Positions 7,247-19,535 of a stretch of 19,535 nucleotides of DNA are shown piece after piece. The notes under the pieces are model-generated. The model was not told where the DNA came from, searched no databases, and worked only from the letters and a program-made list of their open reading frames with translations. The DNA comes from Thermoplasmatota archaeon (GTDB taxonomy: Archaea; Thermoplasmatota; Penumbrarchaeia; Penumbrarchaeales; Penumbrarchaeaceae): contig JARVGK010000026.1 in assembly GCA_029762535.1 (NCBI GenBank), positions 1 through 19,535 of the forward strand, written 5' to 3'. Made by a program: the position numbers and the translations under genes. Position 1 is the stretch's first letter. The number at the start of each line of letters is the position of its first letter.

Positions 7247-8440
7247 TCAGGAGATATCCAATATATCGAGCGGCTCGATGATCTCTATCCCCTCAATGGA
7301 GACCATGTCCCTATCCGGAACGATCAGGACCTTCCTCAGATCGGGATACCTATCAAGGTTCTTCTCCACGGTCGATACGTCCTTGCGGTCCAACCTCTTC
7401 TTCCACTTGACCTCGACAACCGCTTTGGGCTTGTTGAAGCGCACGAGAATACCGTCAACCTCCCCTGAGGGGGACATATCCAGATGCGGTACCGCCCCTA
7501 AACGGTCCGCAAGGCAGTCTCTCAGCACATCCTCCATCACCCTGGGTACTATCTGGTCCATTATCGATCGCCCTTCGTCAACGGTCATCTCCCTGTTGGA
7601 TATACCATACCTCTCGTCGATCGAATAATATGCGCTCATCAGAGGCGACACATGCCTGAACACAAACCTTTTCCTACCCCAAACAATATATTTTCTGAGG
7701 ATCCCCAGGTCGCATAGGTTCCTGATATATTGCTGGAGCAGTGAAGGATCGTCCTTACGAATAAGTTTCCTGGAGAAGGCGAACGATGACATCTCCCCCG
7801 ATGTTGACCTTCCCACAGCGACCGAGCGAAGGACGGATTCGTAGATCTCCGAGAGTTTCCTGTCCTCCTCGGTGAAGATCTCCCCGATGAGAGACGATAC
7901 GGTCAAAGCAGAACCGATGATGGTATCGACGGGATCGTTATATCCCAGGGCAATGACCATCGGTTCTTTCATGAAGGCCAACATCTCATATCGGCCCTTA
8001 CCCCTCCATCTCGTTGATGCCAGCAGATCGATGAAATCAACAGGCGGTACCTTCACCTCCTGGACCTTGCCTAGAAGGGGAGAGGACCCGGACAGAAGGG
8101 TTCTGGAAAGATGCAATGTGGAGGAGATCAAGATGAGCTTCCCTTTCATATCCATTGCATGCAGGATATCGAAAAAACCCTCCCCCAGCCTGTGAAACTC
8201 ATCGACCACCACCGTCCTATCGTCCTTTAGGTCCCTCCCCAATCTGTCGATGAACACATCGTAAGGGACCTGTGTCATATCCTCCTCGAGAATTGTCCGG
8301 TCCCTTCCAACGAAATAGAACCTGTCATATCTTTGGAATTGCTTGACCAAAAATGTCTTTCCGGTCTTCCTTCTCCCATATACCATCACCCAACTTCCTG
8401 ATGTGATCCTCCTCGTTAGTTCGGGCCTAACAATAATCAT
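7247..8440 (-). CDS. Archaeal ATPase (ATPase_2-like) with wHTH and C-terminal PD-(D/E)xK nuclease-like domain (DUF234 type)
   Basis: Walker A YGRRKTGKT, Walker B VVVDEFH, wHTH segment LQQYIRNLCDLGIL, C-terminal GEVDGI...VEVKWK. Confidence 0.85.
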   Translation of the reverse strand: MIIVRPELTRRITSGSWVMVYGRRKTGKTFLVKQFQRYDRFYFVGRDRTILEEDMTQVPYDVFIDRLGRDLKDDRTVVVDEFHRLGEGFFDILHAMDMKGKLILISSTLHLSRTLLSGSSPLLGKVQEVKVPPVDFIDLLASTRWRGKGRYEMLAFMKEPMVIALGYNDPVDTIIGSALTVSSLIGEIFTEEDRKLSEIYESVLRSVAVGRSTSGEMSSFAFSRKLIRKDDPSLLQQYIRNLCDLGILRKYIVWGRKRFVFRHVSPLMSAYYSIDERYGISNREMTVDEGRSIMDQIVPRVMEDVLRDCLADRLGAVPHLDMSPSGEVDGILVRFNKPKAVVEVKWKKRLDRKDVSTVEKNLDRYPDLRKVLIVPDRDMVSIEGIEIIEPLDILDIS

Positions 8441-8580: not shown

Positions 8581-9108
8581 ATGGCGATATGGGAGTTCGA
8601 AGGCAAGAGGCCCACGATCGGCAAGGGATCGTTCGTGTTCCCTACGGCCGATGTGATAGGAGATGTGATCATTGGAGAGGATTGTTACATAGGTCCGGGG
8701 GCAAGGGTGAGGGGCGATTACGGATCGATCCGGATCGGGAACGGGTCCGCGATCGAGGAGAACGTCGTGGTCCATGCCCGGCCGAACGACAAGACGGTCA
8801 TAGGGGATCACGTGACCGTGGGGCACGGGGCCATAATCCATAACGCCACCGTCCGCGACTGGGCAGTTCTGGGGATGGGATCGATAGTTAGCGACTGGGC
8901 GGTGGTGGGGGAATGGGCCGTCATCGGGGAAGGGGCCCTCGTCAAGAACAAACAGGAGATCCCCCCGGGAAAGATCGCCGTGGGGATCCCGGCGAAGGTG
9001 ATCGCGGATGTGTCCGGGGAATACATGGAACAGTGGACCCACTTCAAGAAGGTCTATGTCGATCTTGCGAACAGGAGATATCCGATCACTTTGAAGAGGA
9101 TCGATTAG
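8581..9108 (+). CDS. Gamma carbonic anhydrase family protein (hexapeptide repeat; CaiE/PaaY-like)
   Basis: Left-handed beta-helix hexapeptides, VIGDVIIG, RGDYG, Zn-ligand histidines in VVHARP and VGHGAIIH; RBS GGTGA 4 nt before ATG. Confidence 0.93.
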   Translation: MAIWEFEGKRPTIGKGSFVFPTADVIGDVIIGEDCYIGPGARVRGDYGSIRIGNGSAIEENVVVHARPNDKTVIGDHVTVGHGAIIHNATVRDWAVLGMGSIVSDWAVVGEWAVIGEGALVKNKQEIPPGKIAVGIPAKVIADVSGEYMEQWTHFKKVYVDLANRRYPITLKRID

Positions 9109-9120
9109 TTCGCTGTCTGC

Positions 9121-9185
9121 GTTTCCAACGTATACGAATCCAATAAAAACAATAGTTGGAGTTTATGCCTATTCTATCGATAGAG
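9121..9185 (+). repeat. Degenerate direct repeat, copy 1 (flanks the AAA_14 ATPase gene)
   Basis: Perfect 17-bp core ATAGTTGGAGTTTATGC at 9152-9168, with partial identity to 10627-10692 on both sides. Confidence 0.75.
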
Positions 9186-9243
9186 TTTCTTCGCCTTCAG
9201 CATCGCAGGGTATTGTTGGAGAATGACTTCTTGAACTACCTCT

Positions 9244-10569
9244 TCAGGATCGCAGAATTCCTGCCTCCTCATGTTCGAGCAGGTATTTCCATAAAGGGAT
9301 GAAATGTAGCTGAGATCCTTTGATGACCTCAACCTTGTCCCGATCCCCGCCTATGATCAAGAGATCATCACAATCCAGTTCCTTCGAGGCCTTGATCAGG
9401 CTCCTGATCTCTCTGGAGACAGTATCAGGTCTATCGAGGTCAGAGCATACTTGGATCAATTGCGAGACCTTTCCATCCGATCTGATGACGAAATCCACCT
9501 CCCATCCACGATCGTCCCTCCAGTAGGATAACTTTTCACGAAGGCCTCTTCTTAATAGCTCGATGGCAACACAGTTCTCATACGACCTTCCGATATCCTT
9601 CCCAAAAGTGGTCGATAACGCTGTAAGGAATCCGTTATCGATGAAATATTGTTTCCGGGGGTATTGTAGTGGGTCCTTTACGTTGAATGAGAATATCTTC
9701 ACGTTATGCATGAAATAACTACTTTCAACATATTCCAAATAAGTGAATAGAGTGCTCTTGCCAACCGAGTGTCCTTGACTTTTCAATGTATTGTGCAATT
9801 TGCTCACGGAATATCTGGTCGAATTTAGCAGAAGAAGCAGCATCGCCTTCAAAGCAGCCTCATTTTGGACGTTGTAACGTTCAACGATATCACGGCCGAC
9901 CACTGTTCGAAAATATTCTTGAAGGATCTCCACTTTCATAGAGGAAGGAGAATCAACGACTTCGGGCATACCGCCATATTTCAGGTATTCGTCAAGATTC
10001 CTTCTCAAGGTGGCATATTCCATTTCACGGAATTCGATATGATCCAGGTTAAGAGATATCCCCTTGTAATTCAGGAATTCTTTGAAGGATAGTGGGAATA
10101 TTTCAACCTCCAAAGCCCTTCCTCTAAGCTCTGTGGGGATCTCTCTACTGGATACTTTCGAGCTGGAACCCGTTAGGAATAACCTCAGATCCTTTTGATC
10201 GTGGATCCTTCTTAACCATCTACTCCAATCGGTCATCTCCTGGAGCTCGTCCAGAAAGAGAAACTGGGTCTTTTTTTCGAAGGTAGACCTTATGACGGGG
10301 ATCAATTCCGTGAGGAATGTTGTATCAGGTGGAATTCTCTCATCATTGAAATCGATGTGAATGACCTCTTCCTTTGAAAGACCCTTGAGGAGGTCTTTTA
10401 TCAATCCATATAATAAGAAGGTCTTTCCAGTTCTTCTAAAACCCGTGACTACTATGATCTTCTTTGGGGTCATCTGAAGATATCTGGTGAGGTCGACGTC
10501 ACGTGTCTTGATCTGGGGGATCTCCTTTTCGATCCAGTAGTACAAAATTGTCCTTATTGTCCTATCCAT
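9244..10569 (-). CDS. AAA_14 family ATPase with C-terminal DUF4143 (nuclease-like) domain
   Basis: GFRRTGKT, LFLDELQE, TGSSS, GGMPEVV, KQYFIDNG, YENCVAIEL, YWRDDRGWEVDFVI...LIQVC. Confidence 0.92.
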   Translation of the reverse strand: MDRTIRTILYYWIEKEIPQIKTRDVDLTRYLQMTPKKIIVVTGFRRTGKTFLLYGLIKDLLKGLSKEEVIHIDFNDERIPPDTTFLTELIPVIRSTFEKKTQFLFLDELQEMTDWSRWLRRIHDQKDLRLFLTGSSSKVSSREIPTELRGRALEVEIFPLSFKEFLNYKGISLNLDHIEFREMEYATLRRNLDEYLKYGGMPEVVDSPSSMKVEILQEYFRTVVGRDIVERYNVQNEAALKAMLLLLLNSTRYSVSKLHNTLKSQGHSVGKSTLFTYLEYVESSYFMHNVKIFSFNVKDPLQYPRKQYFIDNGFLTALSTTFGKDIGRSYENCVAIELLRRGLREKLSYWRDDRGWEVDFVIRSDGKVSQLIQVCSDLDRPDTVSREIRSLIKASKELDCDDLLIIGGDRDKVEVIKGSQLHFIPLWKYLLEHEEAGILRS

Positions 10570-10626
10570 GTGACAATAACTATAGTATATTGTCCTATTT
10601 ATAATTTAGGAGGTCTGATTCCTTAT

Positions 10627-10692
10627 GTTCCTACGTATGGGATTTCCCTAAGGTCGATAGTTGGAGTTTATGCTTTTTCTATACGATAAGAG
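10627..10692 (+). repeat. Degenerate direct repeat, copy 2
   Basis: Core ATAGTTGGAGTTTATGC at 10657-10673. Confidence 0.75.
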
Positions 10693-10749
10693 GAACATTG
10701 GCTTAAATATGATCAGCTCAAGACCCTTCTCTGAGCCTCTTCCTCCTTC

Positions 10750-11876: not shown

Positions 11877-11896
11877 GGTTCGAACCCTCTGGTGGC
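11877..11896 (+). repeat. Inverted copy of the tRNA-Thr 3' end
   Basis: GGTTCGAACCCTCTGGTGGC matches 20 of 21 nt of the tRNA 3' end GGTTCGAATCCCTCTGGTGGC, on the opposite strand. Confidence 0.8.
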
Positions 11897-12003
11897 GGCT
11901 ATAATCTAATTGTGTCGGGAAGCTCAATTGAATGCCGTAACATCAGGCTTCCCGGTCTTGGGAAAATCGAAATACGACATTGATACCATGTCGATTTTCC
12001 CGA

Positions 12004-12048
12004 CTTTTTCATCCCATATAGCTTGATGGATGCTAAGGGATGAAAAAG
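12004..12048. terminator. 12-bp perfect inverted repeat immediately 3' of tRNA-Thr (terminator-like hairpin with T-run)
   Basis: CTTTTTCATCCC (12004-12015) / GGGATGAAAAAG (12037-12048). Confidence 0.55.
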
Positions 12049-12122
12049 AGCCACCAGAGGGATTCGAACCCCCGACCTGCTGATTACAAGTCAGCCGCTC
12101 AACCGGGCTAAGCTATGGTGGC
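12049..12122 (-). tRNA. tRNA-Thr(UGU)
   Basis: Minus strand folds as a cloverleaf: GCCACCA acceptor, D arm, GCTGA-CT TGT AA-TCAGC anticodon arm, GGGGG-TTCGAAT-CCCTC T arm, TGGTGGC and U discriminator. No intron, no encoded CCA. Confidence 0.97.
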
Positions 12123-12152
12123 ATATGTTGGCGTTCCAACACTAATATCACC

Positions 12153-12170
12153 ATATTTATAAACAGTTCG
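12153..12170 (-). promoter_or_regulatory. TATA box of tRNA-Thr
   Basis: TTTATAAA at 12156-12163, about 35-40 nt upstream of the mature 5' end. Confidence 0.65.
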
Positions 12171-12196
12171 TTCACACTCATCGGAAGCAGGTCGGC

Positions 12197-12351
12197 CGCC
12201 GAAGGCGGTTATTATCCGTAATGGGGGGGTGGGGCCTTTACCCGAAAGAGTTCGAAGAACGAGAGAGGGGATCCACTGTTGGGTGTTTTTTTCAGGGAAA
12301 AAAACACGCTGATTACAAGTCAGCCGCTCAACCGGGCTAAGCTATGGTGGC
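12197..12351 (-). repeat. tRNA-Thr-linked repeat unit A (perfect copy of tRNA nt 1-44 at 12308-12351 plus ~110-bp conserved arm)
   Basis: Near-identical to 12398-12551; 12308-12351 is identical to 12079-12122. Confidence 0.95.
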
Positions 12352-12397
12352 GGATCGTTTAGGTCTGGGTGAAAAACCATTGTATAGATAAATGGTT

Positions 12398-12551
12398 CGC
12401 CTCAGGCGGTTAATATCCGTAATGGGGGGTGGGGCCTTTACCCGAGCGAGTTCGAAGAACGAGAGAGGGGATCCACTGTTGGGTGTTTTTTTCGGGGAAA
12501 AAAACACGCTGATCACAAGTCAGCCGCTCAACCGGGCTAAGCTATGGTGGC
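12398..12551 (-). repeat. tRNA-Thr-linked repeat unit B (tRNA nt 1-44 at 12508-12551 with one substitution 3' of the anticodon)
   Basis: Differs from unit A by a few substitutions and one G-run indel. Confidence 0.95.
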
Positions 12552-12586
12552 ATCTACCTATTGAGCATTGGTTACGGACCACGGGT

Positions 12587-15500
12587 TCAATCTGGGGTCA
12601 GGTACCCCCCGTCATCCACCCGGGCCATCGGAGGCGCTTCCTCCGCCTGCTCCTCTGCTTCTTCTACGGGTCCCTCAACGGATGGCCCGGCATCATCTTC
12701 CACTCCCTCTTCAGGGACCGATCCCTCCTCGGGGGCCTTCGACCCCTCGTCGAAGAGCTTGTCCACGTCGAAAACGTCATCCGGCTTCTCCTCGCCGGTG
12801 TAACCCTCCGGGGGCTCGGTACCGTAAAGCTCCCTGTATATCTCCTTCTGCTTCTCGTAGGGATCGTCCGTTCTCTTCTTCTGTGTCCTCTTCACGATCA
12901 TTATCCCGATGACGACCAGGATAATTATTATAAGCAGCGTCAGAAGCAAGAACAGGAACAGGACCAGGCCCTGGGAAAGTCCGGAAAGGAATGGGAAAAT
13001 ATCCGTGATCAGGTTGTATAGCCCCTCCCCCAGCGGGTTCCCCTTGGAATCATCCGGAGCGTCCCTGATCCGGACAGTGATGGCGTCGGAAACGATGACG
13101 GTCATATTGTCCTCGGACACCGCCCTTACGTAAAGGGTGTATTCCCCGGTATCGGCCGTTGCCGACGGGTAGATGACGATGAGCGATCTCCATAGGTCCG
13201 GGGATGTAAGACCCCTTGAGGACGATACCGGACCCCAACGAGTGTCGGTCCTCGTATCTGAGAAATATGCCCACCCTTCATCCGCTAGCTCACCCTCCAG
13301 GTAAAGAGTGACGTTGTCCGTGTAAGTTCCGAGATTTATAACGCCTATCTCCATCGGCTTTGACTTCAGGGAGCCTGATCCGCGGTATGTGAGATGTGTT
13401 TCGGGATATAGGAGATCGACCCTGTAATCGTTTATCTTTATCATACCCTCCGAGACCCTCGAAAAGTTCCCGTTGTTGTGGGCCATCACCTGGAACGAGT
13501 ACACCCCCATGCCAAGACCGAGTCCGTTCAGAGCGTACTCCGTGCTGGACCCGACGTCGGTCCAATCCAATATATCGTTCATAAAGCTCTCGGTTCCCAG
13601 CCGGATGTGATAGTTAACCTCCATGCGGTTATGGGAAGGGGACCTGCCCCATTCGATCGTGCGGTTGGTATCCGGCAGATAGAACGGTCCTACCGGAGGG
13701 GTCTCGGCAGGCGGAGGATCCCCGAAATCCACGACCCTGAAGGTGTGGGTGAGCACGTCCCATCCCCCTATCCTGTCGGTCACGTTTATCCTGAGCTTCC
13801 AGTATCCCGGGGTCAGCTTGTGTGTGTCAGGGATGTCGAAATATGTCCTTCTGCCAATTTGAACATCGTCGGAGAACTGATAGAGATCGACATGGTTCAT
13901 GAGCATGACCTTGTAATAGAGGCGATCCCCTTCCTCATCGTAGGCGTCATCCCACCAGATATGAGGTGTCTCCGAATTGATGATGCCAGGATATGCTCCG
14001 CCCATGAAGACGGGAGCGTAATTGTCGGGGATGTCAACGTTTATTCGCACCTCGGGGGTCTCCCTCAAGTTCCCAAGAAGATCGGACGCCATCCACTGTA
14101 TGTAGTTGTACACTCCTTTATCGCTGAACTTCAGATCGACATAGGCCAGGAATTGCATATCCTCGAGCGGTACTACCCTGTCCGGAACGGACCATTCACC
14201 GTAACCCTGGTTCGTCGTCCTGTACCTGTACATGATCGACGATGGATCGATGCCTATGCTCCTTGCGGACGTGCCTCCGAGTAGGTGGTCCAGCCATATG
14301 ATGCTGCAGTTGACGTCGGCGTAGATCTGAACGTCGGCCGTCGTCGGCCTCATCTGTATGAAATAAGGCACCTGCGAATCGATCCAAAGGGTGATGTATT
14401 CCGAGATGGTAGGTCCGTTACCGACCATGTCCCTGGCCTCGAACCTGACGTAGTTCTGTTTGCCCTGGGAAAGCTGTACGTTGGCGAAGGCGTTGTAGGT
14501 GTCGTTGTCTATCATCTCAGTGCTGCCTACGGGAATGCCCCTCTCGAAGTCATCAGGGGTATTGATTGACCTCTGATACTTGACCGAGGAGGGAGCCACG
14601 TGAGAACCTCCGGTATCGGTGACCCTGCCGCTGCATTGGACGCGGTCCTTGTCCATCCATTTGAACTCCTCGGGTCCAAGCATGACGACGCTTGGAGGGG
14701 TCGTATCTATCCTCGGTCCGGGGAATATGTTCGACCTTAAAAGCGTCGGGTCCCTCTCCTCCATGATCTCGACACCCCAGAAGTACTCGCCCTCGACCGG
14801 GATCACGGCCTGGGCGTGATATCCCACACCTTCGATGTAGTAAATGTCGGAATCGTTCTTCTTGGACATGGGAATATACTCCGAGAACGGGTCAAGCCCC
14901 TCCGCGTCGTTGTATATCCTCATCCTTGGATATCCGGTCCTGGGCATGTCGTTGTCGTAATCGGAATAGATGAACTCGAAATTGAAGACGCTGGATCCAT
15001 TGCCTATGGTCCTGTCGAATTCGAACGGCCCCATGAAATCGAAATCCCTCATACCAGGCAGATAGTTCGGCCCCGTGAGGGACTGTGAATGCCTTCCGAA
15101 GAAGAGGTCGCGGTAGACCTCCATGGGAAGGTAGTTCCTCTGATCGCTCCAGCACATGATGGCCCTGCCTTCCGGGGTATAGGTGATCCGGGGGAACTCC
15201 TGGTCGGTCCTATCATCCTTGAAGCGGTCCGTGTCATCCGCCCTCAGCATGTTTCCCCAGGTCCTGCCCCCATCCGATGAGTTGAGGTAGTATAGGGTCC
15301 TCTCTATCTTGTCACCCTGGAGGTTGAAGTTCTCCCTTTGGAACGACACCGATATGACCCCGTTGCTGGTCGCAGCTATGACCGGCCGATCATCGGTGGC
15401 CCTCTCCGGCACCCTGGTTATCCTGAAGTTCTTGATGAGGGTGGATCCCTTGTCCTCGCTTCGGGTCATCCATATCTCGGGGTATCCGCCCCTGGAGTCG

Positions 15501-16420
15501 CTCCAGACTATGTAGAGGTTCCCCGCGGCGTCCACCGCTGGCTCCGCATCGACGCGGACCCTATCCTCCTCCGTATCATCGGTAATGTTGATCTCGGGGT
15601 TGAAGGTCGCACCTCCGTCATTGGAGACCACCAATACCGGTTTGTAACCCAGGGTCAGGTTCCGATTATCGTGCCAGGTCACATACACATCATCGCCGTG
15701 CATGACTATCCTTGGTCGGAGATGGTTCCTGTAGTAGAGGCCGTCGGTGTTGAGGAGGACCGCAGTGGACCATGTATCCCCTCCATCGTTGGAATGAATT
15801 GAATAGATGTTGCGGTGGGAGCCGGAGTCCATCATGTCCTGCCATACGACCACGAGCCTTCCGTCCGCGTTGATGGCGATGTCAGGCTGAAAACCGTGCC
15901 ATATCTTCTCCGCTTTGACCGGGTCGATCTTGACGCTCGGGGTGAAGGATTCTCCCTTGTCGGAGGACTTGGAGAACCTGATCTCGACAGGCCTGGATAT
16001 CGGATCGTCCCCCACGAATTTCCTGTGGTCCTCCCATACCACGTATATCATACCATCGCTACCCACGGCCATTCGCGGGTGCTGCTTGGCGCTCCTGTTG
16101 TCGTTGCTGACGTTACCGTCCCTGAGTATGTCATCCACCCTTGTCGGGATCGACCATGTGGCTCCCTCGTCCTCCGATCTTGAAAGATACACCCCCCAAC
16201 GGAAGGTATGATCGCTCATGAAAAGGGCATATATCGTACCATCGGGCGCGGTCTCGAGGTCGCATGGCACCTGGGTGTTGAGGGCGTAGGCGCCCGTCGC
16301 TATCTGAACGCTGGCTGCGAATATCGGCCTGCCCCCAGTGGCCTCCATGGGCAGGAATTGCATGAGGCCGACAATGACGAGCATGGCCGCGAGGGCCGGG
16401 ACTGAGTAGCGTCTGTTCAT
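12587..16420 (-). CDS. Large membrane-anchored surface protein: BNR/Asp-box beta-propeller (sialidase-like fold), Ig-like stalk, C-terminal TM helix and acidic tail
   Basis: Signal peptide; six Asp-boxes (SEDEGATW, SSDKGESF, SNDGGDTW, SNDGGATF, SEDKGSTL, SSDGGRTW); IDTTPP-type Ig modules; TM LVLFLFLLLTLLIIIILVVIGIMIV followed by KRTQKKR. Confidence 0.85.
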   Translation of the reverse strand: MNRRYSVPALAAMLVIVGLMQFLPMEATGGRPIFAASVQIATGAYALNTQVPCDLETAPDGTIYALFMSDHTFRWGVYLSRSEDEGATWSIPTRVDDILRDGNVSNDNRSAKQHPRMAVGSDGMIYVVWEDHRKFVGDDPISRPVEIRFSKSSDKGESFTPSVKIDPVKAEKIWHGFQPDIAINADGRLVVVWQDMMDSGSHRNIYSIHSNDGGDTWSTAVLLNTDGLYYRNHLRPRIVMHGDDVYVTWHDNRNLTLGYKPVLVVSNDGGATFNPEINITDDTEEDRVRVDAEPAVDAAGNLYIVWSDSRGGYPEIWMTRSEDKGSTLIKNFRITRVPERATDDRPVIAATSNGVISVSFQRENFNLQGDKIERTLYYLNSSDGGRTWGNMLRADDTDRFKDDRTDQEFPRITYTPEGRAIMCWSDQRNYLPMEVYRDLFFGRHSQSLTGPNYLPGMRDFDFMGPFEFDRTIGNGSSVFNFEFIYSDYDNDMPRTGYPRMRIYNDAEGLDPFSEYIPMSKKNDSDIYYIEGVGYHAQAVIPVEGEYFWGVEIMEERDPTLLRSNIFPGPRIDTTPPSVVMLGPEEFKWMDKDRVQCSGRVTDTGGSHVAPSSVKYQRSINTPDDFERGIPVGSTEMIDNDTYNAFANVQLSQGKQNYVRFEARDMVGNGPTISEYITLWIDSQVPYFIQMRPTTADVQIYADVNCSIIWLDHLLGGTSARSIGIDPSSIMYRYRTTNQGYGEWSVPDRVVPLEDMQFLAYVDLKFSDKGVYNYIQWMASDLLGNLRETPEVRINVDIPDNYAPVFMGGAYPGIINSETPHIWWDDAYDEEGDRLYYKVMLMNHVDLYQFSDDVQIGRRTYFDIPDTHKLTPGYWKLRINVTDRIGGWDVLTHTFRVVDFGDPPPAETPPVGPFYLPDTNRTIEWGRSPSHNRMEVNYHIRLGTESFMNDILDWTDVGSSTEYALNGLGLGMGVYSFQVMAHNNGNFSRVSEGMIKINDYRVDLLYPETHLTYRGSGSLKSKPMEIGVINLGTYTDNVTLYLEGELADEGWAYFSDTRTDTRWGPVSSSRGLTSPDLWRSLIVIYPSATADTGEYTLYVRAVSEDNMTVIVSDAITVRIRDAPDDSKGNPLGEGLYNLITDIFPFLSGLSQGLVLFLFLLLTLLIIIILVVIGIMIVKRTQKKRTDDPYEKQKEIYRELYGTEPPEGYTGEEKPDDVFDVDKLFDEGSKAPEEGSVPEEGVEDDAGPSVEGPVEEAEEQAEEAPPMARVDDGGYLTPD

Positions 16421-16487
16421 CTGGACACCTCCGGTTGGGTCTTCCGGAAAAGGGGCTTAGTAGTATATTAACGGCACGGATTGGGAC

Positions 16488-17732
16488 CTATTGATCACCT
16501 GAAGAGAAATTGGCCTTGGACCTCTTGAGCGCCTCGAGGACGGGCATATCCTGGCCGCTGAGATATCCGATCAGGGCCCCCCCTCCGGTGGAAACGTGGC
16601 TGATCCCGCTTAGCTTCTCTGTCTTGACCACCATGTTGGTCTCGCCTCCGCCCATGACCGAGTATGCGCCGGACTCGCTTATGGCCCTGAACAGCTCCAC
16701 GGTGCCTTCCGAGAACTGCTTCATCTCGAAAACGCCTGCCGGCCCGTTCGCGATTATAGTCTTCGCATCTTTGATTATATTTGAGTATCGGACTATGGTA
16801 TCGAGCGATATGTCGAAGATCGGGCCATTAGCAGGAAGGTCTTCGATGGTGATCCGCACTCTCTCTCCATCGATGTTCAGGGCGATGTCCGAAGGGTAAA
16901 GCACCTTATCGGGATGGTCCTTTAGGACCTTCTTGCATCTCTTGAGAAGTTCATCAGCTCCCTTTATCTCCTGATTGATGAAATTGATGTTGGGGGCTCC
17001 GAGATCGTATCCGGCGGCCCAGGTGAACATCGACCCCACCACTCCGGTGGTCAGGATCTTGTCGGATATGCCGCCTTTGAGAAGGTTCTCGGCGACCGCT
17101 ATCGAGTCATCGACCTTCAAACCCCCCAAGATCGCGATGGATGGCCTCTGGGGGTCCACCGTTATCCTTTGAAGGGCCTTGAGCTCCTTCTCCATCAGAG
17201 GTCCGGCGGCGCTGGGGACGACCCCGCAGAAGCCGACGAGGGAGGGCTGCGAACGGTGGACCGCCGAGAACGCGTCGTTTATGAAATATTCAACAACGCT
17301 AGAGAGTCTTCTGACCAGGAATGTCGATTCCTGGACCTTCATGGGGGCATCGTCCAGGTCCACGTCCTCGGCGTAGAATCTAGTGTTCTCGAGAAGGAGG
17401 ATCTCCCCTACGTTCATGTCCCTTATGCGCTCGAGAACTGTTTCGGAGAACAGCTGGTCCATGTACTGGACCTCTCTGTCAAGGACCCTCGAAAGGGATC
17501 TGGCATGCTCCTTCAAAGGGGTGTAATCCTTCTTGCCCGGCCTGCTCTGATGGGCGAGAAGGACCAGTTTGCATGGGGGCAACAGCTTGATGGACCTGGC
17601 ATGCTCCTCTATCCTCTTCAGCGACAGGATCTCTCCGGTGTCCGGGTTGACCGGAGAATTGATATCGACCCTCATCAGAACGGTCTTGCCCTCCAGGGGC
17701 AGATCGGATATGGTCAAGAAAGGCAGGTCCAT
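16488..17732 (-). CDS. pgk: Phosphoglycerate kinase
   Basis: MRVDINSP, LAHQSRPG, LLENTRF, INDAFSAVHRSQPSLVGF, ILGGLKVDD, NGPAGVFE, HVSTGGGA. Confidence 0.98.
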   Translation of the reverse strand: MDLPFLTISDLPLEGKTVLMRVDINSPVNPDTGEILSLKRIEEHARSIKLLPPCKLVLLAHQSRPGKKDYTPLKEHARSLSRVLDREVQYMDQLFSETVLERIRDMNVGEILLLENTRFYAEDVDLDDAPMKVQESTFLVRRLSSVVEYFINDAFSAVHRSQPSLVGFCGVVPSAAGPLMEKELKALQRITVDPQRPSIAILGGLKVDDSIAVAENLLKGGISDKILTTGVVGSMFTWAAGYDLGAPNINFINQEIKGADELLKRCKKVLKDHPDKVLYPSDIALNIDGERVRITIEDLPANGPIFDISLDTIVRYSNIIKDAKTIIANGPAGVFEMKQFSEGTVELFRAISESGAYSVMGGGETNMVVKTEKLSGISHVSTGGGALIGYLSGQDMPVLEALKRSKANFSSGDQ

Positions 17733-19210: not shown

Positions 19211-19232
19211 CTCTAATTTATCTATTATTCAC

Positions 19233-19253
19233 GGACTGGAGGGATTTGAACCC
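19233..19253 (-). repeat. Inverted degenerate copy of the tRNA-Ala 3' end
   Basis: GGACTGG-A-GGGATTTGAACCC versus the reverse complement of 19188-19209, GGACTGG-TC-GGGATTTGAACCC. Confidence 0.8.
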
Positions 19254-19325
19254 TTGGGTTCTTGGGAAGGTAGGCATCGGCCGAGTTCCCAAGATGTGGA
19301 AAATCCCAAAGGGATTTTTCATGCA

Positions 19326-19535
19326 TCAAATCCCGACCAGTCCACCATTCCCTTCTCATTGCTTAATCTTTTTTTCAGGGAATGATGAACTGGTCTCAGT
19401 CGTGAAACTGCGTTTCACTCCTCCCGACCAGTCCACCATTCCCTTCTCATTGCTTAATCTTTTTTTCAGGGAATGATGAACTGGTCTCAGTCGGGTGAGG
19501 CAAAGCCTCTCCCTCCTCCCGACCAGTCCACTATT
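19326..19535 (+). repeat. tRNA-Ala 3'-end repeat array: two identical 72-bp units (19331-19402, 19422-19493) and a third tRNA-end copy at 19517-19530; runs to the window edge
   Basis: TCCCGACCAGTCCA occurs at 19331, 19422 and 19517; the first copy extends to 19 bp of identity with the tRNA (19326-19344). Confidence 0.95.

Follow-up and report, generated by a model that had tools for sequence, protein, structure and literature searches.

Where part of a tRNA is duplicated beside a tRNA gene, the usual interpretation is that a virus or plasmid has integrated there. In archaea, such tRNA fragments bound integrated elements of 9–23 kb (PMC9897764), and elements of the pTN3/TKV4 type, which have SSV-family integrases, integrate into the 5′ half of tRNA genes (PMC8371274; PMC6563490). 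The pTN3/TKV4 elements are kilobase-sized, carry their own integrase gene, which integration splits, and use a single fixed att site. Egan and Landy reportedly described in 1978 the 178-bp repeats (rtT) at tyrT of Escherichia coli, which are tRNA-linked repeats located downstream of the gene. The term tRNA-linked repeats also appears in PMC8144298. In the split tRNA genes of Nanoarchaeum and Caldivirga, a promoter and a tRNA 5′ part that ends at a loop/stem boundary are followed by non-tRNA sequence. Palindromic mini-elements, namely, IS200/IS605-derived PATEs, REP/BIME, Rickettsia RPEs, and MITEs, are small, gene-less, hairpin-rich, and multi-copy. These elements are dispersed, and their target duplication is short or absent.

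The window analyzed here (19,535 nt) is an entire contig of the metagenome-assembled genome (MAG) of an uncultured sediment archaeon (2.96 Mb, 93% complete; G000 in our genome set). Upstream of a tRNA-Thr(UGU) gene, the segment 12123–12551 is best explained as a two-unit array of a gene-less repeat module that resides at the ends of tRNA genes and is specific to one Thermoplasmatota family. On the same explanation, each unit is in effect a dead tRNA-Thr gene, with a promoter segment and nt 1–44 followed by the module in place of the 3′ part. The array resembles pTN3/TKV4 elements in the direct repeat of the 5′ part, the intact gene on the inner side, the promoter from inserted DNA, and the possible tandem occupancy, but has only 156–185 bp between repeats, no gene or integrase remnant, several cut points, and an inverted copy. 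The E. coli tyrT repeats are likewise gene-less tandem units beside a tRNA gene, each with a piece of it and with an unexplained origin; however, they are downstream and copy the 3′ end, whereas the units here are upstream, copy the 5′ part, include promoters, and form a family across many tRNA genes. A sequence relation between the two is not expected. Unlike split tRNA genes, this locus has an intact gene, no 3′-half gene (a 3′-half copy was found nowhere else in the genome beyond pieces of 14–16 nt), and self-pairing sequence after the 5′ part. With the palindromic mini-elements, the units share a structure that is conserved more than the sequence, but they are present at tRNA gene ends only, duplicate the gene end from nt 1, and often have an inverted copy. 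Assignment to MITEs was rejected, as the two palindromes are internal to the unit, the duplicated target has 12–44 nt and always starts from tRNA nt 1, and the units are not dispersed. Derivation from IS200/IS605 was also rejected, since part of the target is duplicated, no common motif precedes hairpin 1, and Y1 and TnpB were not found in the 93% complete genome. The units are akin to tRNA-linked partial duplications already known in kind; we found no literature description of gene-less, promoter-carrying 5′ units of this kind, and this small tRNA-linked repeat element apparently has no previous description.

By repeat search, we found three copies of a 46-nt repeat (12079–12124, 12308–12353, and 12508–12553; 100, 96, and 98% identity; spacing of 229 and 200 nt), a pair of 128-nt repeats (12224–12351 and 12424–12551; 97% identity), and a 42-nt repeat with 83% identity. 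The tRNA-derived portion of the 46-nt repeat is 44 nt (linear nt 1–44) and closes with the final base of the anticodon stem. One additional base in the D loop makes linear nt 44 equivalent to standard position 43. The common arm that follows each extra copy is ~110 nt, is bounded by two perfect palindromes, and has 83–97% identity between the two units. The promoter-side segments (50–70 nt) are unique and mutually unrelated. Together with the gene call by ARAGORN and Rfam, these results confirm what the original prediction described, namely, that tRNA nt 1–44 occur at 12079–12122 and twice more upstream, that the extra copies end at the anticodon stem and run directly into a 25-nt hairpin with a perfect 10-bp stem, and that each unit has a conserved arm of ~110 bp and a unique segment. 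Three near-identical 44-mers cannot have a chance origin. The assembly path is determined because the units differ at several positions and have the unique segments, and additional identical units could have collapsed in the MAG assembly. There is no credible ORF in the 200- and 229-bp units. Read in tRNA orientation, the stop codon of the BNR-repeat gene is followed by the outer copy, hairpin 1, core, and hairpin 2, then by the TATA-like promoter segment, the middle copy, and another set of hairpin 1, core, and hairpin 2, and lastly by the 10-nt inverted copy, the inner promoter, and the intact gene (Table 1).

Table 1. Features of the tRNA-Thr(UGU) locus, with positions in the window.
Feature	Position	Strand	Basis
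Intact tRNA-Thr(UGU) gene	12048–12122	−	ARAGORN; Rfam RF00005, 67.3 bits
Inner promoter segment; TATA TTTATAAA at 12156–12163 (−34 to −41 from nt 1)	12123–12185	−	Sequence; relatives
Inverted 10-nt copy of tRNA nt 42–51, right after hairpin 2	12186–12195	−	Local alignment, 3/300 shuffles
Hairpin 2, inner unit; 5-bp stem, 3-nt loop	12196–12208	−	Sequence; covariation on A2
Inner arm core; C-rich motif, small central hairpin	12209–12282	−	Repeats; alignments A1 and A2
Hairpin 1, inner unit; 10-bp stem, loop CCCTG, T7 run (tRNA orientation)	12283–12307	−	Inverted repeat; covariation
Middle truncated copy, identical to tRNA-Thr nt 1–44	12308–12351	−	Repeat search
Middle promoter segment; TATA-like element 12382–12393	12352–12397	−	Alignment score 26, 0/300 shuffles; blastn
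Hairpin 2, outer unit; loop unlike that of the inner unit	12398–12408	−	Sequence; repeats
Outer arm core	12409–12482	−	Repeats; alignment A1
Hairpin 1, outer unit; loop CCCCG, T7 run	12483–12507	−	Repeats; terminator-like scan
Outer truncated copy, nt 1–44; single change A37G (tRNA position 37) at 12514; no TATA upstream	12508–12551	−	Repeats
BNR-repeat gene, 1277 aa; stop 35 nt upstream of outer copy	12587–16420	−	ORF
Downstream multi-hairpin module ending in inverted tRNA 3′ end (11877–11896)	11877–12047	−	blastn; sequence

Similar units are widespread in this genome. Upstream copies of the own 5′ part were found at nine of the 40 tRNA genes (Arg-GCG, Arg-CCG, Arg-UCG with three units, Pro-GGG, Thr-UGU, Thr-GGU, Leu-CAG, Leu-GAG, and Ser-UGA), and downstream copies of the 3′ end at ~21 of the 40, in a census with a chance expectation of ~0.2 for such 13-mers. 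The Arg, Pro, and Thr units have one layout, which consists of a tRNA part, a hairpin with a variable 8–10-bp stem and a CCCCG loop, an ACAG stretch, a C-rich motif, and a promoter. There are 23 such hairpins in G000; those bearing the signature are all within 500 nt of a tRNA gene, with the exception of two hairpin copies that follow a Pro-type promoter where the surrounding sequence is partly masked. The likeness of the Arg/Pro arms to the Thr arms within G000 is limited to the CCCCG-loop hairpin, the short ACAG motif, and the C-rich motif, and a covariance model of Thr arms (R1, see below) has no match on these Arg/Pro arms. Downstream of tRNA-Gln(CUG) on contig C25 (125620–126001), three oppositely oriented 124-bp CCCCG-loop units are present, and the antisense of the last 9–10 nt of that tRNA stands before each of them. 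The module downstream of tRNA-Thr(UGU) (~170 nt) has homologs behind tRNA-Thr(CGU) on C22 and tRNA-Thr(GGU) on C36 (blastn; C22:6427–6590, C22:6618–6767, and C36:49155–49276), and the two C22 copies are flanked by inverted pieces of the tRNA 3′ end.

To compare relatives, model R1 was built from an alignment of seven Thr arms only (A1). It matches arms in 11 of the 24 genomes of the family, at Thr, Arg, and Pro tRNA genes, and has no match in 135 other genomes of the phylum; all compared genomes are MAGs, in which the arrays are often at contig ends. The original prediction had looked to a homologous arm in other genomes, and these matches provide it. The matched arms directly follow truncated 5′ parts of Arg (three isoacceptors), Pro, and Thr tRNAs, with E-values of 1e-7 to 1e-8 for the Arg arms. 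Two other matches are downstream of a tRNA, in the opposite orientation and preceded by the antisense of its 3′ end, which is the arrangement of the tRNA-Gln units described above.

The state of the tRNA-Thr locus differs among these relatives. No unit is present in G001, G003, G004, G008, G010, and G015. An arm without a tRNA copy is found in G022 and as the leftmost arm of the metagenome contig L048. A single unit cut at nt 17 is found in G019, in G002, and at the CGU gene of G022, while G011 has an nt-17 unit plus an nt-44 unit and G012 has at least two units at nt 44. Contig L048 contains at least two arms; at its end, an arm adjoins each side of a single nt-44 unit. Arm-only arrays are present in G014 and G020. 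Four states were found in genus g6 (G005, G022, G019, and G011), including the mixed array with cut points 17 and 44. Variation in unit number, an expectation of the original prediction, is thus seen among related genomes, with 0, 1, and at least two units. G001 and G012 belong to one genus and have the upstream gene and the native promoter in common. In G001, this promoter leads into an intact tRNA-Thr gene, whereas in G012 it is followed by nt 1–44, an arm, a different promoter, and again nt 1–44 and an arm. Either G012 gained an insertion or G001 underwent a clean deletion, and empty sites in general could be deletions between the 44-nt repeats rather than ancestral states. The arm-only tandem arrays are L056 (G014:C316), L061 (G020:C9), and L053 (G020:C15), and their junctions are in a 9-nt stretch that hairpin 1 has in common with the first bases of the inverted tRNA piece. 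Across all units, the cut points are at about nt 12, 17, 19, 24, 28–32, and 44. Unpaired blocks of the arm are conserved across genera, which suggests recognition by something; a purely passive repeat would need no such recognition.

The two palindromes are internal to the unit and unrelated to each other. In an alignment of 31 sequences (A2), which was fitted to the model although the stems are plain in the raw sequences too, each of the 16 base pairs in hairpins 1 and 2 shows changes in both partners. Paired cells amount to 94.4%, compared with 75% in shuffled alignments (0 of 500 shuffles reach the observed value) and 44–58% with the partner slid. Wobble pairs were found in five of the 393 cells when read on the tRNA strand and in 10 on the opposite strand. 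Because wobbles are few and have no strand bias, the stems are evidently maintained as Watson–Crick palindromes, and a DNA-level structure or symmetric recognition fits better than an RNA from one strand. Hairpin 2 was also considered as a UUCG tetraloop and rejected, since the written-out pairs give 3-nt loops (TTC, or GAA on the other strand); the RNA argument based on UUCG was dropped for this reason.

The 5′ flanks of the three tRNA-Thr copies have different sources. The core of the inner promoter is also found upstream of tRNA-Thr in G011, G022, G005, G009, G020, and G001, such that the inner TATA is, as judged from sequence, a family-conserved type of tRNA-Thr promoter. The idea that the inner mini-element supplied the TATA of the live tRNA therefore gained no support here, because this promoter type is family-wide and is present also in a genome without any unit. 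The middle promoter segment is homologous to the tRNA-Thr(CGU) promoter on C22 (alignment, 0/300 shuffles), with its TATA-like element at −31 to −42. For the outer copy, there is no TATA in the 35 nt between the BNR-gene stop and the copy. These three unrelated flanks (family Thr type, Thr(CGU)-like, and promoterless) imply recombination between Thr loci. The more general claim that an element brings its own promoter stands in part: units can do so, as in G012 with the native promoter outside and a different one inside, compared with the empty site of the same genus in G001, but this cannot be claimed for the inner TATA here. A scan for terminator-like signals picked the anticodon hairpin plus the T7 run. 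In G000, this combination probably stops transcripts from the BNR gene and the middle promoter, thereby insulating the live gene. The T-run terminator was rejected as a general feature because it does not extend to other units. The promoter segments of Arg/Pro units on C14, C15, C5, and C36 of G000 are palindromes with a TATA-like box in both orientations.

In Thr units, hairpin 2 is directly followed by a reverse-complemented stretch of the tRNA from around the cut point. This inverted piece corresponds to nt 37–53 in nt-44 units and nt 4–20 in nt-17 units, carries the CGU sequence at CGU genes, and is supported by 0/300 shuffles in most genomes. Relatives have it at the same place with 12–35 nt (35 nt in G013); in G000, the inner unit has a 10-nt piece, and the outer unit lacks one. 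Leu and Ser units, which belong to another arm family, also have an inverted piece (0/300 shuffles), while the signal in Arg units is marginal and Pro units have no such piece. It always occurs with arm remnants, never alone. Its offset beyond the cut (3–12 nt) and its length (10–35 nt) are both irregular, and these irregularities, together with those of the cut point, fit repair or template switching rather than an enzyme with a fixed cut. The pattern suggests that the inverted piece is the worn remainder of a longer inverted copy made at unit formation, and gene conversion with the tRNA gene could keep it similar. Readings of the inverted piece as a C/D-box guide and of the junction as a bulge-helix-bulge intron were rejected, the former since there are no consistent boxes and the latter since there is no pairing between the sequences that flank the presumptive splice sites.

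Our preferred reading, held tentatively and at a little short of an even chance, is that the array is a DNA-level repeat module that owes its spread and its changes in size to homology-driven repair or recombination. Beyond the observed array anatomy, module homology, and number polymorphism, we infer the following steps. The module would enter a tRNA gene by homology-primed repair synthesis or by template switching from an occupied tRNA locus. A 3′ end within the tRNA gene would pair with the truncated copy at the occupied locus, copy through the module, the promoter, and the 5′ part, and then rejoin the gene; because the tRNA 5′ part is the homology, an intact gene with a promoter would always be regenerated downstream. 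Unequal recombination between the tRNA-part repeats and between the arms may then let arrays grow, shrink, and swap promoters, possibly with the help of stalled forks or breaks at the palindromic sites. Neither the truncated copies nor the inverted piece would be more than a by-product, and jumps between isotypes would need just similar D-arm sequences of tRNAs. Repair or recombination accounts for the irregular cut points, the concerted similarity within genomes, the three 5′ flanks, the arm-only arrays, the use of both gene ends, and the lack of a linked enzyme. It does not explain the conserved unpaired blocks of the arm, or the origin of the first unit and of the inverted piece.

Serial site-specific integration offers a different account, in which a miniature non-autonomous element uses nt 1–44 of tRNA-Thr as att site and a tyrosine recombinase acts in trans. 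We consider it unlikely, even though direct partial-tRNA repeats bound each unit, the intact gene is regenerated, units can bring a promoter (G012 compared with G001), and 5′-half attB sites and tandem integration are documented in archaea (PMC8371274; PMC6563490). The genome has two Xer/IntI-like recombinases, on C25 and C53, but these are the only PF00589 matches in G000 and both are away from the array; moreover, no recombinase was found beside any array examined. The arm and hairpin patterns have no match in viral contigs, and the array has none in plasmids and phages. A larger parent or free form of the element was not found, all genomic matches being gene-less arms at tRNA genes. The suggestion that the arm may border an integrase or occur in viruses or plasmids thus gained no support. 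Known footprints bound elements of 9–23 kb (PMC9897764), whereas the units here are always 120–260 bp. The cut points differ among homologous arms, and one att site does not fit the arm-only arrays and the inverted use at 3′ ends (tRNA-Gln, C25). In the hairpins, variable arms enclose a conserved loop, the reverse of what a recombinase core site would show. Integration of two mini-elements of 229 and 200 bp in series, as originally proposed, is therefore not borne out, given the missing integrase and parent, the irregular cut point and inverted-copy length, and the arm-only arrays. Searches of the 93% complete G000 for a Y1 transposase (PF01797), TnpB (PF07282), and reverse transcriptase found none. 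Involvement of IS110 (bridge-RNA) was rejected since its distribution does not match that of the arms; IS110 is present in five of the 11 arm-bearing and five of the 13 arm-less genomes of the family, and the single IS110 transposase of G000 is on C22.

The units may instead be functional RNA genes, which encode either 5′ tRNA halves that end at a T-run or a structured small RNA whose inverted piece pairs with tRNA-Thr. This is improbable in our judgment. The TATA-like element at the middle copy, the T7 run after nt 44, the folding of the inner unit (z = −4.2 relative to shuffles), the covariation of the hairpins, and the way in which the inverted piece tracks the tRNA sequence between CGU and UGU loci all favor it, but the T-run is missing in most family members (e.g., in the G+C-rich hairpin 1 of Arg units), the copies vary between about 12 and 44 nt, there are arms with no copy at all, and the outer copy is promoterless; for these reasons, the proposal of T-run-terminated 5′ tRNA halves now appears weak. 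In addition, the inverted piece is located upstream of the promoter of the matching gene, is missing in the outer unit, and decays in length. There is no wobble bias for either strand, the fold of the outer unit is not exceptional (z = −1.8), and Rfam 15 gave no match at or near gathering score for the arms, with the tRNA itself as the sole match. Programmable targeting, in which the module, in RNA or single-stranded DNA form, would find the matching tRNA site by using the inverted piece as its address, is very unlikely. The piece does span the cut point and match the resident tRNA in Thr (types 17 and 44), Leu, and Ser units. However, within the Thr-arm family it is weak or missing at Arg and Pro genes, and in this array it is short in one unit and lacking in the other, so it does not look like a required address; its variable length, which reaches 35 nt in G013, is what a longer inverted copy in decay would show. 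The match is explicable by concerted evolution of the inverted repeats, and no guide-using nuclease or recombinase was found. A one-off local tandem duplication or an assembly artifact has hardly any probability left. Within G000, the arm is found only at the tRNA-Thr(UGU) locus and the genome is a MAG, but homologous arms with the same junction extend to other genera, to further tRNA isotypes, and to a metagenome contig, the promoter segments differ, and the distinguishable units define a unique assembly path. As the module is found at many tRNA genes of the family in changing numbers, it is not a one-off duplication. It is possible, albeit doubtful, that these units form a class of DNA element not yet described, which is protein-less, colonizes tRNA gene ends, surrounds a double-palindrome module with direct and inverted copies of the gene end, brings its own promoter or terminator, and spreads between tRNA genes without a dedicated recombinase, with a possible role as a source of introns or split genes.

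A footprint similar to that of integrated viruses or plasmids is thus produced here by gene-less units of 150–230 bp, which recur on the 5′ side of a quarter of this genome's tRNA genes and on the 3′ side of half of them. These units vary in number and composition between close relatives and put promoters before essential genes. If self-spreading, they would represent a new way for DNA to colonize tRNA genes harmlessly and a model for how tRNA genes gain inserts, new promoters, and truncated copies. In practice, the units break assemblies at tRNA loci and may mislead the annotation of tRNAs and prophages in archaeal MAGs.

Several other observations were made at these and related loci. A second, nearly full copy of tRNA-Thr(GGU) is located ~256 nt upstream of the gene at C36 49390–49464; it is split by two hairpin inserts at ~nt 28/29 and 57/58, receives no call from ARAGORN, and could be an intron-bearing duplicate or a dead copy. 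Of the Xer/IntI-like tyrosine recombinase on C53 (7817–8098), which the end of the contig truncates, the C-terminal part is present; it comes right after tRNA-Arg(UCU) and an intron-bearing tRNA-Trp. Behind tRNA-Ala(CGC) in the window (19212–19535), the 3′ end of that tRNA recurs in inverted form, and three direct copies of its last 15–20 nt come next, ~95–115 nt apart. A 14-nt T-run motif that the Thr hairpin shares with this tRNA-Ala array was rejected as a sign of one element, because the hairpin that contains it at tRNA-Ala is another, longer one. Several relatives have the phosphoglycerate kinase gene directly upstream of a tRNA-Thr gene. In G000, the 1277-aa surface-type BNR-repeat gene is located between the two (window 12587–17732), which suggests an insertion or rearrangement at this locus. 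The region 9000–10700 of the window has a GC content of 43–46%, compared with about 55%, and carries an AAA_14/DUF4143 ATPase gene (9244–10569), which adjoins a second AAA_14 gene (7247–8440).
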